Origin: Verrucomicrobiota bacterium | GTDB taxonomy: Bacteria > Verrucomicrobiota > Verrucomicrobiia > Opitutales > Seribacteraceae | Assembly: GCA_027622665.1 (NCBI GenBank) | Contig: JAQBYT010000025.1 | Location: 1 to 55,717 of the forward strand | Direction: 5' to 3' | DNA length: 55,717 nucleotides | In this document: positions 36,573-42,500 of the stretch, one piece after another | Layout: each line of letters begins with the position of its first letter | How positions within the stretch are numbered: position 1 is the first letter of the stretch | Program-made: the position numbers

Positions 36573-39500
36573 TATCGGTCAGATCAAGATTCCCGCACAA
36601 ACACTTTGGCTCCGGTGGAGAAGCGAGCCTCGGATAATTCGAGTACGGCGGGAGCAGAGATGGCTTCCCCACCAGCAACAGCAGTTGCCTGACCAGTTAC
36701 GAGCACGGAAGTCTTGCCGTAGAGGTTGAGGGTTTCACCGTCATTTGGAGAAAGCACATTCCCCGAGTTCAGCCAACGACGAAGCTCTAGTTGGCTCCAA
36801 CTACGATAAGGCTCTCGATTCCCAAGTAGGTTTTCCGCAAAACGAATGGATGCAGTTTTCCAAAGGCTGTTGGAAAGTTCAGACGATTCAGTCATTGCTT
36901 TTTGCATCGACTCGGTAGTCAACCAGAGGGACGTCACTGAGGTGTCGGCAACGACGTTGGCGGTACGAGGAACTCCGGCCAATACAGCCATTTCACCGAT
37001 AACGGCGCCACGTCCCATGATGTCGACGACCAAATCGCCAATCGACACTTTGACGCTTCCTCCGGTTATCACGGTCATCCCGTCACCCGCTCCTCCTTGG
37101 TCCATGATCCGCTGGCCCGAAGAGTAGGATCGTTGCTCGGAAAGTCCTACGATTTGGGAGATAACTGTATCGGGTAATCCTTTCAACCAGGTGACTTCGC
37201 GCAAGACCTCTTCTGGCGAAGGAATCCGAAGCTCGAGAGAACTCTCCATCACATTCTTCATCCGTTCCTCGACGTCGAGGAGCAGCCGGTCCGACTCGTC
37301 GGCTTCGAGGGAACCGGCTTTGCGTAGTTTCTTTATCGTATTGCGCTCGTGGTTAAGAACGGAACGGATGGCATCCTTGGTTTCTATCCCCACTGTGACC
37401 TCCGGATAAGCTTCATGCATTTCCTTGAGGAAATTGAGGCCATGCAAGCGGTTTTCCCGAATCTCGTTCTTGAGTAGATTGGCAGTTTCGGTCACCTTCT
37501 TGGGATCTCCACTTTCGTCTAGGTCGGAAACAAACCCATCCACCATTTTGGCCACGTCCTGCTGAGCAACGACAAAGGCTTTGGCTGAATCATAGCTTAC
37601 GGTCAGGCGGTCGACGAACATACCCTTCAATACGGGAACGTTCTTTAAGGCTTCAAGGAGCTTGGGTATGCCGCACACCTTGTCCAGATATTCGCGCTGG
37701 GTCAGTGGTGCCTTGCCCTCCAAGTCCAGAAACTCGCTCAAGTTGTTGTCGAGCAAGGCAACTCCTTGGGCACTCAGGAGACCTTCACGAAACTGTGCCC
37801 AATAACTGCTGCTTTCCTTCTGCAGCAGACGTCGCCTGGTTTCCGCCAAGGTATCCATCCCCGCAACCTCGTCAGCCGTCAACGGGTAGGCCACGGGGTC
37901 GGGCAAATACTTGCGCACTACACCCCAGTTGGCACCGCCGAGAAAGCGGTCGTCCTTAAGGAGATTCATTTCCTGCTCGCAACCTTTGGCCACTTTGCCC
38001 GAGGCATTGGAAAACATTAGCTTCTTAACTGCGGGCAATGCAGTCAATCCGAGTCCGTTTACCAAAGGCTTAACGGTGGTCGCGTTGACCAGCAAGGTAA
38101 GCAATACTACCCCGGAAATATAAAAAAGAAATTGGTCCCTAACTCGGGAACTGATACCTACCAAAGAGGCCGTGGCCACGGCGCCGGAGCCTTCGCCTAC
38201 AATAATAACCACTTTGTCCTTCGAAGCCAGTTCATCGCGGATGCTCATGGCTTCCTGAGTAGAAGTCTTGGAATTCAAGCTTTTTTCAGCGAAATGTGCG
38301 TCCTGAGAAATGGCAGTGACTTTACCATTGGTAATGGTCGCTTTGGCCTCTGAAGATGAATTAGATGCTATTAACCTTAGTTTCTTATAAAGATGGGTTT
38401 TTTCAGCCCCACGATGCTTCGCTTCATCATCCTTGTTCACAATGAATACAGAGGTCGTAGCCTCTTTGTAGCCTGACCCTCCGGATCCAAGCTCGAATTC
38501 GTAGTGGAAATGCTCGGAATACACCACCAGAGCCAGAGCCAAGCCAATCGCTCCGCGAAGCCCCCCCCACCATACGACTACTGCGTCCTTCCCCGGCAAA
38601 CCGTAGCCCGTCCTTTTCATAAGCGGATAGAACATCGCAATGTTTATTGCCCTGGTCAAATGGATGGCCAAGTAAATGAGGCAGAGGATAACGTAGTCCA
38701 TTCCAGTAGGATCGACGTTTTGGGCAATAATCACGCCGACCACGATAAAGATGATGACGTTCGAGATAAAGGCCGCCAGTTCCCAGAACTCGTGCATAAA
38801 GTGAGCCACCTCAGGGCTTATTCGCTTGGCTCCAACACCAGCCATGAGGATGCCCAAGGCCACCAACCCCAAAACTCCCGAAACTTGAAAGAAATGCTCG
38901 CAGATGAAGAAAACGGCATAGGAAGTGACTAGCACCAACGTAATCTCGATCATCGCATCGTTGAAGACCTTGCGCAGCCAAAGTATACAAACGATGCCGA
39001 TAAGCACTCCCACGAGGGCACCCGCGCCTCCAATTGAACCAAATCCCAAGGCAGCGTCTACGACAAAGTCTCCCAGTCCAGTGAAAATTTGAGCACCGGT
39101 TACGAGACCGATAAGAAGCATAAAGGCAACGATCGCGGTACCATCGTTAAGGAGCGACTCGCCTTCGATCAATGTTCCCAGCTTTTTGCTAGCCCCGAGT
39201 TCTTTGAGCAAAGCTACTACAGCAACTGGGTCGGTAGCGCTCGCAACTGCACCCAATAACATAGAAGCCAACCACACAAAGGACATCGCGCTCGGGGTGT
39301 CCACATGCCATTGCGACAGCACACCCCCTTCCCCACCAAAGAATTGCACCATCCCCCAGAAGCACAGTCCCGTCATAAGTGTTGCCGTAACGATACCCGG
39401 CCCGGCCAGGTACAGGGCGTTGCCCACAGACTTCTTGAAAGTGTGGACGTCCAAGGCGAATCCGGCCTCGAAAATGAGGATGGGAAGGAATACGTACAGA

Positions 39501-42500
39501 ATGAGGTGCCCATCCATATTGCCGCCCCAAGTGATCGCCGCACTCAGCGTATGAACAATCTTGTGCCACAATCCGTCGTCGTGGTGCTCTCCCCCTTCGG
39601 CATGCTCGGCGTGTCCGGTTTCGGCGTGCTCCTCATGTCCGGGTTCGGCGTGTCCGGGTTCGGCGTGTCCGGGTTCGGCGTGCTCGGCGTGACCGGCTTC
39701 AGCGTGCTCGGCGGTAGCAGTGCCTGCCTTATCTATATAAATCCGATTCAGTCCTCCCATTCCCAAACCGATAAGCAAAAGAAGAACCGTAAACGGGAGA
39801 GGAACTTTCTTCAGAAAATGACTAGTCGCAGCCCCGACGACTAGCGCGAGAATCAAGAAGAAGAGACCGTATAAGTAACCGTGCCCACCAGAAGAGGCGA
39901 GAAGGGAAGGCGAAAGGGAAATTAAGTTCATGAGCAGGAAGTGGTTTTCGCAATATTCAACCAATCAAACCCCCATTGCCAAGGAAAAAGACCTTCAAGG
40001 CAATTCGAACAAACGCCCCGGCAAAGAGTGCTTCGGAGCAGGAGGGATTTTCCTTTGAGGGGGCTCGACAGAAGTTTTCAATAGTGAATCCGGGCGTGGA
40101 GAAACTCGGCTTGGAGGTCGTCCCAGAAATTCCTCCAAAGGGTTTGAAGAACTGGGTCGATCGGGAGAAGGCTGGACCGAGGCAGGCAGGGGGGCGGGCT
40201 GGGCAGTCTCATGGGGAACGGGGGCTACCGGCACTACCTCGAAAGTGTCGACTCCCTTCGCATCCCCCACAACGGCTCGAAAACGCTTTGCGATGGATTC
40301 GTCCTGAGCTTTTGTGACGATTGCCAAGGAACGCTCGAATGATGAAAGATTTTCGAAGCCACCGACCAGAAAAGAGGTCTTGGTCATTTTCCCCAAGTCA
40401 ACGTACACTAGGTCGCCAAATCCACGCCCACCGGGTTTAACAAAGAGTAATTCGCCCGGCAACAATTGAGTGGCTCGCTTGGACTGAACGTCAGTAACAC
40501 GAACTCGACCTAACATACCTACTATTTTAAGCCCACCATTCGGCTCCACTTCCAACATGACGGTTCCCATTCCATCCAAGGAGATTTCCGCTTCCGGACT
40601 CTTCAAGGTGAGCAATGCCCCCATCTTTCGGGTCCGATAGAGCAAGGACCCTTCATAGACCACAATGCCTTTCTCCTCGATCATAAAAATCGTCTCACTA
40701 CCAAAACGCAAGGTCCGCCCGGCCGCCAGGGTTTCCAAGCCACTCCTCGGTCGCACCGATACCCGCGCCCCTTGGGGGAGATAAGAAGCCCGACCCACGG
40801 TCTTGGCTCCATCGGAGGAACTAATTAATGCTCCATCACCGATAGTTGCGGAAACTAAGAAAAGATTTTTTGCTTCGCTATCGGAAATGAATGTCAACGC
40901 TAACCAAAATGCCGTACCGAAGAGGATGGTGCGCCAACCAAAAACGTTTCCAGACAATGTTAAATATGAATTCACGAACAAGCTCTTCTTCATGCCTAGC
41001 AATCCTCGAAACTAGAAGCGGTAGTTCCCCGTCAAGGCGGCACCGATATCCCACGCTCGGAACTTGGAGGATTGATCCAACAAAGCTTCGCCCTTCTCGT
41101 TGGTGAACATTTTAGAATAATTAATGAATGTCTGAACACCCAGCCACTCACGAAACTGATAAATACCAGAGGCACCGAGAGTAAACAGGTAATCCACTCG
41201 ACCTTGGTGGTCATTGTTTTTGTAAGAAGTGCGAGCAAACCCAAGACTCGGCATTAACAAAAGTTTCCCGTCGGGTCCAAAGGAATGTATATAGGTCGCA
41301 TTGAGCGCAGTCTGAAGGTTGTCTCCATCATCGGCAAAGACGCCCGGAATGGGAAAGCCATCATAGCCATTTTGTATCACGCGTTTGGTATTGGCGTACT
41401 TGATCATCGAATCGATCATCAAGAACGATTTCTCGGTAAAGGGTAAGATTTTCTGGATCGAGAAAGTGGGTGCCACCGCATCGAACATTTTGTCTCCCGA
41501 GGAAATACTGCTCAGGTAATCGTACTCCAAACCTAATCCCAAACTCCAATCGTCGGGCAATCCAATGGCCGCCGAACCCTTGATCATGCTAAAATGATAC
41601 CCAAGCAAGTCCTTGACCGTTTTTTCCCCGTAATGGGCCCATTGAGTCATGTAGTCGATCCTGGGGATCAAAGTAATGTAATCACCAATTCTAGTGGGAC
41701 GAATGCCCAAGCCCGCTCCTGCATTGAATTCGTAGACGCCGGATCCCATGGTATTCGCTTTGGTGCGCAAAACGTTATTTGTGTAATACATGCGAGTTCC
41801 TGCAGACAAGGAGGCATTCAAAAGAGGTTCGCCCGTAGAAGTGGATGGCGAACCGGCGGCGCCATCCGGGGATAACCGAGGCGGAGGGACGTTTCCAGTG
41901 GCAGGAGGTGGAAGTGAATGTGTCGAGGGCACTGGTGATGCTGGCGCCACGGTGCGTAAAGGCACTCCCACCTCAACGATTTCCTGCAACCCCAAGTTGG
42001 AGTGAAAACCCTGAAATCCCGGACGGGAAGGTGTCGCGGCAGGAACGACAACGGCTTGCCCGAATGATTCACTTGAGACGAAGGCAAGATTCGCCAAGGC
42101 AAACAAAGAGGAGAGAGTAAGAATCCGGATGTGCAAAAGGCTGCGGGTCATCACGATAAATGAAAAGAAAATTCAATCATGGATAGACAGTCTTGCCAAT
42201 GATAATGTTTTTCTTGAACCGATCAAGAATTATGCAGTGATTGAACATTATTTCGGCCAAGGTTAAACGCAAGAGGAACGAGAAAAGAGAGCATGCCGAA
42301 AAGCCTGAAAGTCACGACTCATCGAACTGTATCTTGAACCACATCTATCCACATCCCATCTGAATAGCGGAAAAGAAAGACTTTTCCAGAGGTAACACCA
42401 AGAAAATAGTGCCATCCGCCACCTTGCTGAAAGACATATGGATATAGGTCGCGAGAAGTCCAAAGCCAACCTAGGTTCTTCTGCCAGTACCAAAGTCCAC

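Follow-up and report, generated by a model that had tools for sequence, protein, structure and literature searches.

Does a marine-type bacterium of the Verrucomicrobiota (Opitutales, Seribacteraceae) carry a Na+/H+ exchanger that is switched by a cyclic nucleotide, in the manner of the long-tailed exchangers of eukaryotes? We analyzed one candidate gene within a window of 55,717 nucleotides (the whole stretch of DNA that was analysed), in which an open reading frame extends over positions 36584–39964 of the minus strand, the strand of all features below unless otherwise stated. Reading from the ATG at 39931, a Met shared with the starts of the homologues, gives a coding sequence (36584..39931) of 1,115 amino acids plus a stop codon. 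Pfam assigned residues 28–475 to PF00999 (Na_H_Exchanger; E = 5e-50, 170.9 bits against a gathering threshold of 26.2) and residues 934–1014 to PF00027 (cNMP_binding; E = 8.6e-12, 45.3 bits against 27.5); the scan of the protein returned no further family below E 0.37, and no ion-transport or voltage-sensing domain. As set out below, we infer both transport and gating, and consider the protein to be probably a cyclic-nucleotide-gated electroneutral CPA1 Na+/H+ exchanger.

The earlier note placed the gene just upstream of nuoB. The first gene of nuoBCDEF does follow on the same strand (nuoB, 35780..36304), and this order was conserved in 50 of 59 Opitutales loci; direct adjacency, however, did not hold up, as a tRNA-Ser(GGA) gene on the plus strand (36485..36572) lies between the exchanger stop (36584) and the nuoB start (36304). 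Because this tRNA on the opposite strand separates the two genes, they do not form a simple operon, and the association is one of conserved gene order. No nuoA was present between the exchanger and nuoB. The tRNA-Ser region was also kept in relatives, where it appeared as a match to 'orf106'; this 106-aa ORF beside the exchanger was rejected as a protein gene, being the tRNA-Ser read as protein.

We compared the protein with the sequences of PDB entries using phmmer, and its AlphaFold model (pLDDT 85.9, pTM 0.79) with known structures using Foldseek. The best sequence match was SLC9C1 of Strongylocentrotus purpuratus (E = 1.6e-120), with aligned stretches at residues 25–59, 138–471, 597–698, 693–730 and 763–1065 of the query, followed by plant SOS1 (AtSOS1, 4.4e-90; OsSOS1, 5.6e-87), whereas NHE1, NHE3, NHE6 and NHE9 reached only 1e-20 to 1e-15 and matched in the membrane part alone. 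The structural comparison gave the same picture: the best whole-length match was SpSLC9C1 (8pcz_A, E = 2.9e-47, TM 0.62/0.67), OsSOS1 (8iwo_A, E = 5.4e-42, TMt 0.69) and AtSOS1 (7y3e_A, E = 2.9e-41, TMt 0.69) also matched over the whole length, and NHE1, NHE3 and NHE9 matched in the membrane part only. The near-full-length alignment with SLC9C1 and SOS1 that had been reported earlier is thus borne out by sequence and fold alike, and the proteins are homologous over their whole length.

The model contains 13 transmembrane helices. TM1 and TM2 (residues 18–69; 39725..39880) correspond to helices 18–39 and 47–69, with two lysines (41–42) in the short loop between them; counting the topology back from the cytoplasmic tail, the N-terminus would lie outside. 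The exchanger core, TM3–TM12 (residues 121–472; 38516..39571), is delimited by the Pfam match and by the SLC9C1 alignment at 138–471. An N-D motif is the mark of electroneutral CPA1 exchangers. Among 66 sequences, the core residues T233-D234, E258, N262-D263, R427 and R459 were invariant or nearly so; T233-D234, N262-D263, R427 and R459 were each invariant or present in at least 90%, so that the CPA1 ion site, with T-D in the unwound helix, the N-D motif and two conserved Arg, is kept. R427 aligns with R399 of SpSLC9C1, the residue whose mutant served as the exchange-dead control in the SLC9C1 study (PMC6052114).

The first outer loop, described earlier as a His-Ala-Glu repeat, indeed has a core (residues 75–118; 39578..39709) with 11 His in 44 residues, beneath which the DNA carries a 15-bp tandem repeat (39636..39682; 3.1 copies, 100% match) coding for three HAEPG units at residues 84–99. 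This core was predicted to be disordered, with pLDDT <50 at residues 79–118; residues 63–137 hold 13 of the 30 His of the whole protein, and relatives are likewise His-rich at this position. Between TM12 and TM13 lies a periplasmic alpha/beta insert of ~120 amino acids (residues 473–594; 38150..38515), which has no counterpart in SLC9C1, adopts a fold when the whole protein is modelled (pLDDT 72–93 by block), and recurs in 58 of 69 full-length locus proteins; structure comparison gave no clear fold match for it. This insert had not been noticed before. With two extra outer elements, the exchanger cannot be called compact, as it had been. Both elements would face the periplasm, where, speculatively, they may sense or buffer the outside pH or bind metal. 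TM13 (residues 595–627; 38051..38149) aligns with SLC9C1 424–450 and is the last hydrophobic helix of the model, in accordance with the previous statement that hydrophobic segments end at about residue 624.

Beyond TM13, the model places an alpha-helical cytoplasmic domain, a helical disk (residues 634–896; 37244..38032), which is covered by the query stretches 597–730 and 763–900 that match SLC9C1 in sequence; from these matches and the whole-length Foldseek alignments, it is the counterpart of the alpha-CTD of SOS1 (domain names after PMC10372031) and of the coupling helices of SLC9C1. The middle 450 residues, which the earlier note had left unassigned, can accordingly be read as the insert, TM13 and this disk. 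The protein's cyclic-nucleotide-binding domain (CNBD; residues 906–1036; 36824..37216) comprises the PF00027 match and, in the model, a beta roll with helices; its best phmmer matches in the PDB were the CNBDs of PKG and PKA (E 1e-17 to 1e-10), and that of MloK1 reached 1e-8. The protein ends at residue 1115 with a beta-rich domain (residues 1047–1115, strands at 1058–1114; 36587..36793), the beta-CTD counterpart according to Foldseek matches to SOS1 and SLC9C1. The claim that no voltage sensor is present also stood, since no Pfam match was found, positions ~590–790 of SLC9C1 remained unmatched, and no transmembrane helix follows residue 627.

Within the CNBD, residues 973–993 read GRGAVIGEMAVLAGVPRTANV and include a canonical phosphate-binding cassette, G979-E980-M-A-V-L-A-G-V-P-R989-T990-A991 (36959..36997), which confirms its reported retention. 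The pattern GEMxxLxxxxRTA was found in 79 of 80 loci, the tails of which are only 45–95% identical, and the cassette was also kept in a distant deltaproteobacterial clan. In a subgroup of Bacteroidota (P0141, P0144, P0149 and P0170) it had decayed, which indicates that the cassette is free to drift in proteins that do not need it. R989 aligns with R1053 of SpSLC9C1, and R1053Q abolishes the cAMP effect there (PMC6052114). The 'RTA' motif does not discriminate between cAMP and cGMP.

The conserved fold alone does not prove gating, because the effect of cAMP on SLC9C1 is no more than a shift in voltage gating (PMC6052114), so that the nucleotide acts there as a modulator, and because the CNBD-like domain of SOS1, with the same module around it, has Tyr where the cassette Arg would stand and is held to be structural and not to bind nucleotide (PMC10372031). 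The protein could then be a real exchanger in which the CNBD serves structure or dimerisation as in SOS1, while pH, ions, lipids or a partner protein would determine its activity, and the four bacterial representatives with a decayed cassette that still keep the module fit this explanation. However, the ligand-contacting Glu, Arg and Thr persist in 79 of 80 loci and in the deltaproteobacterial clan, which exceeds the needs of the fold, and the closest CNBDs, those of PKG and PKA, are true nucleotide binders. We therefore consider a purely structural CNBD unlikely.

For the preferred reading, a nucleotide-gated exchanger, the CNBD is the only recognisable control element, because the protein has neither a voltage sensor nor a phosphorylated autoinhibitory tail of the SOS1 type. 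As long as no ligand is bound, the cytoplasmic module would keep the transport domain immobile, as happens in autoinhibited SOS1 and in resting SLC9C1. One of the three class III cyclases of the genome, whose sensor parts are GAF-PAS, CHASE2 and TPR, may make cAMP or cGMP; binding of this nucleotide at E980, R989 and T990 would then move the C-helix and free the elevator movement. Only four CNBD proteins were found in the genome. Class III cyclases occurred in 41 of 41 sampled genomes of the family Seribacteraceae (including G000), but such cyclases are common, so that their co-occurrence with the exchanger lends weak support. In seawater (high Na+, pH ~8), a 1:1 exchange would bring Na+ in and H+ out, as with sperm SLC9C1; this direction is a thermodynamic one that assumes 1:1 stoichiometry and given cytoplasmic ion levels, and it would explain the need for gating.

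The exchanged cation is most likely Na+. The NCBIfam scores were far under their cut-offs, both for the NhaP equivalog TIGR00831 (a_cpa1; residues 138–470, 139.4 against 279.6, or half) and for the NHE3 equivalog TIGR00840 (146.3 against 251.25); consequently, family membership does not reveal which ion is transported. K+/H+ antiporter models of NCBIfam also matched weakly (E = 8e-21, far under the cut-off), and Vibrio NhaP-type proteins are described as K+/H+ antiporters (PMC6567090). A nucleotide-regulated carrier of K+ (or NH4+) acting in K+/pH or volume control, like NhaP2-type K+/H+ antiporters, would fit these observations. We regard such a carrier as quite improbable: SLC9C1 and SOS1, which are far closer to it than any other characterised relatives, are Na+/H+ exchangers, and in this 93.5%-complete genome, where the exchanger is the sole PF00999 protein and NhaA, NhaC and NqrA were not found, the only other Na+/H+ system seen is one Mrp locus.

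A genome scan for the family gave 266 matching stretches. The distribution, previously described as all Opitutales, proved to be wider and includes Bacteroidota, Dadabacteria and the deltaproteobacterial clan. We constructed two trees, one of them a membrane-domain tree in which all 63 long-tailed rows were set apart from an outgroup of six verrucomicrobial NhaP proteins (support 97). All named eukaryotes formed one clan (support 100 and, in the rooted tree, 83), and the exchanger fell in a Verrucomicrobiota clade (100; 99 in the rooted tree) inside a clan of Verrucomicrobiota and Bacteroidota, outside which the deltaproteobacterial clan and Dadabacteria were placed. In the rooted tree, eukaryotes lay inside bacterial diversity. 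Recent transfer of an SLC9C-like gene from a marine eukaryote with loss of the voltage sensor, to which the animal protein as top PDB match and a patchy spread within Verrucomicrobiota (3 of the 401 genomes sampled across the phylum; three families in the order sample) might point, is hardly credible, because the named eukaryotes form a clan apart from that of the exchanger in both trees, further bacterial lineages lie outside the latter, and the gene is universal in its own family (33 of 33 other sampled Seribacteraceae genomes).

These relationships bear on the origin of the SLC9C/SOS1 module of eukaryotes. Tentatively, the regulatory module of helical disk, CNBD and beta domain may have originated on a bacterial Na+/H+ exchanger gated by cyclic nucleotides and been inherited by eukaryotes; animals and their relatives would later have gained a voltage sensor, and plants would have given up nucleotide binding. 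If so, the bacterial proteins would represent the simplest working form, controlled by a second messenger and nothing else. In seawater they would draw on the Na+ gradient to drive out protons on command, and their His-rich outer segments would sense external pH or metal, or serve as a sink for protons.

Our literature search returned no paper describing bacterial CNBD exchangers of the SLC9C/SOS1 type, and one review states in its section 6 that the combination of exchanger and CNBD is 'not present in bacteria' (PMC7573149), a printed statement, as it stands in that section, which the present family corrects. Automatic annotation already names members 'NhaP-type antiporter/CRP-like cAMP-binding protein'; the domain pair itself is thus already annotated, and what is new is the recognition of the full module and of its spread among bacteria. 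SOS1 has a central role in the salt tolerance of plants; like SLC9C1, it is a large membrane protein from eukaryotes and difficult to work with. The bacterial family, with the same module, an intact pocket and no second control element, could offer a simpler system for CNBD control of an elevator-type transporter. Direct effectors of cyclic nucleotides in bacteria are few, and a transporter would thereby join them.

Among known systems, SLC9C1 (8pcz, 8otq, 8xq8, 8u6z) shares the 13-TM exchanger, the helical linkers, the CNBD with the cassette Arg and the C-terminal beta domain, and both proteins work in seawater. SLC9C1, described in PMC10620092 as the one transporter known to be under the control of voltage-sensing domains, differs in its S1–S4 voltage sensor, a part of the chain of ~200 residues without counterpart here, whereas the bacterial protein adds the 120-aa outer insert and the His-rich loop and belongs to a separate clan outside that of eukaryotes. 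SOS1/NHX7 (7y3e, 8iwo) has the same succession of TMD, alpha-CTD, CNBD-type domain and beta-CTD, likewise without a voltage sensor; its Tyr, however, contrasts with the canonical bacterial cassette, and at its C-terminus a long autoinhibitory tail follows, which bears the sites phosphorylated by SOS2 (PMC10372031), whereas the bacterial protein stops at the beta domain. Bacterial and archaeal NhaP-type CPA1 proteins (PaNhaP, MjNhaP1, ApNhaP) share the membrane domain with its T-D and N-D motifs, although their tails are short or absent. Finally, the MloK1 and SthK channels are also membrane transport proteins of prokaryotes and likewise bear a canonical CNBD at the C-terminus, but the CNBD there follows a K+-channel pore, whereas here it follows a secondary transporter and a large helical coupling domain.

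The open reading frame of the exchanger extends across window positions 36584–39964 (−), and the ATG at 39931, which corresponds to the start methionine of its relatives, yields a protein of 1,115 aa. Pfam assigned Na_H_Exchanger to residues 28–475 (E = 5e-50) and cNMP_binding to residues 934–1014 (E = 8.6e-12, above the cut-off), with no further family below an E of 0.37; the NCBIfam NhaP and NHE3 equivalogs matched residues 138–478 only, at about half of their cut-off scores. Among all PDB chain sequences, sea-urchin SLC9C1 ranked first (E = 1.6e-120), with five collinear stretches that span TM1, TM3–TM12, TM13 with the first cytoplasmic helices, and residues 763–1065 of the exchanger. 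Arabidopsis and rice SOS1 followed (4e-90 and 6e-87), and ordinary NHEs matched the membrane part only (1e-20). An AlphaFold2 model based on an alignment of 66 homologues (pLDDT 85.9, pTM 0.79; pLDDT below 50 only at residues 1–15 and 79–118) was placed by Foldseek on SpSLC9C1 (E = 2.9e-47, TM 0.62/0.67) and on rice and Arabidopsis SOS1 (5e-42 and 3e-41, TMt 0.69), with NHE1, NHE3 and NHE9 reaching only 1e-11 to 1e-12 along some 460 columns. The whole-length likeness to SLC9C1 and SOS1 claimed in the earlier note is thus borne out by both sequence and model. The gap that it reported at the voltage sensor is also real: about 200 SLC9C1 residues between the second and last cytoplasmic stretches, the site of that sensor, have no counterpart in the exchanger. 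We conclude that the exchanger belongs, as a bacterial member, to the SLC9C/SOS1 structural kind.

In the model, TM1–TM2 (residues 18–69) are followed by a disordered His/Glu/Ala loop (70–120), TM3–TM12 (121–472, holding T233-D234, E258, N262-D263, R427 and R459), an alpha/beta insert (473–594) and TM13 (595–627). The tail consists of a helical domain (alpha-CTD, 634–896), the CNBD (906–1036) and a beta-rich end (beta-CTD, 1047–1115), the names following those used for SOS1 in passages of PMC10372031. Counted back from the cytoplasmic tail, the helices would place the insert, the His loop and the N-terminus at the cell exterior. In the PDB sequence search, R427 was aligned with SpSLC9C1 R399 and R989 with SpR1053; passages of PMC6052114 describe R399A as an exchanger-domain mutant of SLC9C1 and report that R1053Q removes the cAMP effect.

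Within the CNBD, the phosphate-binding cassette reads G979-E980-M-A-V-L-A-G-V-P-R989-T990-A991, and the canonical character previously ascribed to it was upheld among its relatives. The pattern GEMxxLxxxxRTA was found in 79 of 80 loci from named genomes (the best 80 of 266, with tails 45–95% identical to that of the exchanger), and the 80th ends before the CNBD. The Gly-Glu and Arg of the cassette are also kept in a distant deltaproteobacterial clan. The cassette is gone in four representatives of one Bacteroidota subgroup; given that the pattern can decay in this way, its constancy elsewhere points to selection on ligand contact. The cassette pattern cannot separate cAMP from cGMP. Nucleotide gating is the mechanism with the best support for the exchanger, and we predict it as the rather probable mode of control.

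The genome to which the window belongs (4.5 Mb, 93.5% complete) encodes three class III cyclases, with GAF-GAF-PAS, CHASE2 and TPR architectures, and four CNBD proteins, the exchanger among them. Class III cyclases were present in all 41 sampled genomes of the family, this one included, an outcome that might have been otherwise, although such cyclases are common generally. The other three CNBD proteins, on contigs C44 (60618–60866 and 70825–71085) and C45 (568–786), are further candidate cyclic-nucleotide receptors; two of them share a contig at a distance of 10 kb, their ORFs being 563 and 593 aa long. The exchanger is the sole PF00999 protein of this genome, in which one Mrp locus was found and in which, at its stated completeness, NhaA, NhaC and NqrA were not found. 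Contigs from four RNA libraries match parts of the exchanger gene with 95–100% identity; they were not counted as proof of expression (DNA may be present, and neither strand nor level is shown), and the parts that they leave uncovered (39522–40100) carry no meaning.

The genes nuoB, C, D, E and F follow downstream of the exchanger in the same orientation, nuoB being the first gene of this cluster. The earlier note had placed the exchanger just upstream of nuoB, which holds for order and strand, but a tRNA-Ser(GGA) gene on the opposite strand (36485–36572, +) intervenes, 12 nt past the exchanger stop codon. A 106-aa ORF at 36358–36678 was rejected as nuoA: it has no Pfam match and overlies the tRNA gene, representing the tRNA read as protein ('AGFEPA'). 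Of 59 Opitutales loci, 50 have the order exchanger-tRNA-nuoB, whereas no instance occurs among 21 more distant loci; five of the nine Opitutales exceptions had less than 200 nt downstream, and four had at least 2.8 kb without nuo. An operon with nuo is not put forward as a firm claim, as close kin share the order anyway and the tRNA lies on the other strand, and we read the arrangement as inherited gene order and not as evidence of a functional link. Upstream of the exchanger are two ORFs, at 39995–41002 (−, 335 aa) and 41012–42154 (−, 380 aa), neither with a Pfam family at E ≤ 0.001; most Opitutales loci have the former in a syntenic position upstream of the exchanger (26–88% identity, tblastn). 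A further ORF at 42319–48522 (−, 2,067 aa), with RCC1 repeats, cadherin and bacterial Ig-like domains and an ALK/LTK glycine-rich domain match, looks like the gene of a giant surface protein. Across window positions 22001–30000 the AT skew is strong throughout (+0.19 to +0.26), which sets this part off from the remainder of the window.

With the tail as query, a word-index search found 277 proteins at E ≤ 1e-5; the 120 matches listed had identities of at least 70%, and those with a name came from Opitutales, Opitutae or Verrucomicrobia. An exhaustive search of 50% representatives with residues 625–1115 yielded 8,414 matches at E ≤ 1e-3, mostly bare CNBDs, 745 at 1e-10 and 77 at 1e-30. Domain order was determined in 80 representatives by local phmmer with three pieces of the exchanger: in many proteins of 860–1,150 aa the exchanger, helical domain and CNBD are consecutive, with no voltage-sensor gap, and those of 1,150–1,700 aa have a gap of about 200 residues. 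Named bacterial representatives belong to Tenuifilaceae, Bacteroidota/Kapabacteria, Ca. Dadabacteria and one deltaproteobacterial MAG, so that the sources extend beyond the Opitutales, 'Opitutae' and Verrucomicrobia named in the earlier note. Named eukaryotic ones comprise Patella NHE10, a nemertean sperm NHE, two Chromosphaera proteins and Diplonema, together with an EukProt transcriptome protein (P0195). Scanning one genome per species with two patterns from a 4-sequence tail alignment (A3) gave 320 stretches, 266 of them coding for a tail relative; as both patterns come from the helical domain and are biased towards the Verrucomicrobiota/Bacteroidota clan, 266 is a biased lower bound. The best 80 of these were from Opitutales and other Verrucomicrobiota, then Flavobacteriales, Chitinophagales and other Bacteroidota. 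Two loci (L040 and L041), on two contigs of one MAG with nearly equal lengths and apparently identical exchanger-nuo regions, are probably an assembly duplicate. The exchanger was present in 40 of 401 sampled genomes of the order (33/33 others of its own family, 2/2 and 4/5 in two further families, none in the rest) and in 3 of 401 sampled across the phylum; it therefore belongs to the core genes of one marine family and has a patchy distribution outside it.

Two trees were computed from 'quick' searches; neither includes plants, as no SOS1 was among the best 150 representatives. In the full-length tree (quick ML, 64 rows, 916 columns), 24 rows, every one of the six named eukaryotes among them, made up a eukaryote clan (support 100); the deltaproteobacterial MAG fell in a second clan, of 11 rows (100), and a third, of 28 rows, comprised Verrucomicrobiota (16 rows, 100) and Bacteroidota (91). 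Support for the branches connecting these groups was weak (46). The membrane-domain tree (69 rows, 340 columns, mixture model; P0195 excluded for its very long branch) was rooted with six tail-less verrucomicrobial NhaP proteins, a small and long-branched outgroup. All 63 long-tailed rows grouped together (97), and the tail was probably gained once. The deltaproteobacterial clan splits off first, followed by a group of 52 rows (99) in which the order of eukaryotes (83), Dadabacteria with the representative P0132 (95) and Verrucomicrobiota with Bacteroidota (100) is unresolved. The eukaryotes thus lie inside bacterial diversity in this topology. Since a topology with the bacteria as one clade was not significantly worse in the AU test (lnL difference 9.6, P = 0.30), a bacterial origin is the favoured topology at most. 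The exchanger gene was not acquired recently from a eukaryote. Two exchangers of the ichthyosporean Chromosphaera perkinsii (P0174 and P0204, 1,224–1,258 aa) group with animal SLC9C proteins and have a tail-alignment gap of about 200–290 residues at the animals' voltage-sensor position. This hints that a voltage-sensor-bearing form is older than animals, contrary to PMC6660944, which places sNHE in Metazoa only; SOS1 is cited there as the example of a non-metazoan exchanger with a predicted CNBD.

Of 69 full-length locus proteins, 58 have the insert between TM12 and TM13 (114–146 aa), in which Gly and aromatic positions are conserved. Modelled alone, the insert had a pLDDT of 76.7; it had no Pfam family, no Foldseek PDB match at E ≤ 0.001 and no usable match in the ESM Atlas. 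The best VIA-align match, a domain of the T4 tail sheath gp18 (Z 6.2, rmsd 3.5, 86 residues), fell below the trust level of the tool, and hence no function was inferred for the insert. The 11 proteins without it come from seven Bacteroidota and four Verrucomicrobiota; the latter (loci L069, L072, L076 and L079) have a TM2–TM3 loop of 144–216 aa with 14–25 His and a conserved-looking middle part, and one outer domain seems to take the place of the other. The His-rich loop usually has 36–45 aa and 3–8 His among the locus proteins, and 72–75 aa with 11–13 His in the exchanger and the two relatives nearest to it, the gain in the exchanger including a perfect 15-bp × 3.1 repeat. Bacteroidota members have a short loop but, behind a signal-like start, an N-terminal His-rich stretch. 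In 29 of 61 long-tailed rows, versus 0 of 6 outgroup NhaPs, the 40 residues before TM3 include at least 5 His; thus, a His-rich outer segment is recurrent but not universal. A role in pH or metal sensing, or in proton buffering, is speculation.

In the literature, a passage of PMC7573149 states that the combination of exchanger and CNBD is 'not present in bacteria', and the Chowdhury preprint describes the tails of prokaryotic orthologues of known structure as short or unstructured. Of two Nature 2023 structure papers, the searched text of PMC10620091 lacks 'prokaryot' and 'bacteria' and that of PMC10620092 has them only in passages on other matters, so that by these terms neither mentions a prokaryotic form with the tail. 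Likewise, 'cyclic nucleotide' is absent from the searched text of a 2022 review of prokaryotic exchangers (PMC9408914), and 'antiporter' and 'exchanger' from that of a 2007 CNB-domain survey (PMC2246266); the supplements of these papers may still list such proteins. The observation in the earlier note is confirmed and extended. The exchanger shares the domain order of SOS1 and differs from it in the cassette Arg, which is R989 in the exchanger and Tyr in SOS1; the authors of PMC10372031 conclude that SOS1 cannot bind nucleotide. With SLC9C1 the exchanger shares what appears to be a working nucleotide pocket, and the two outer additions are its own relative to both.
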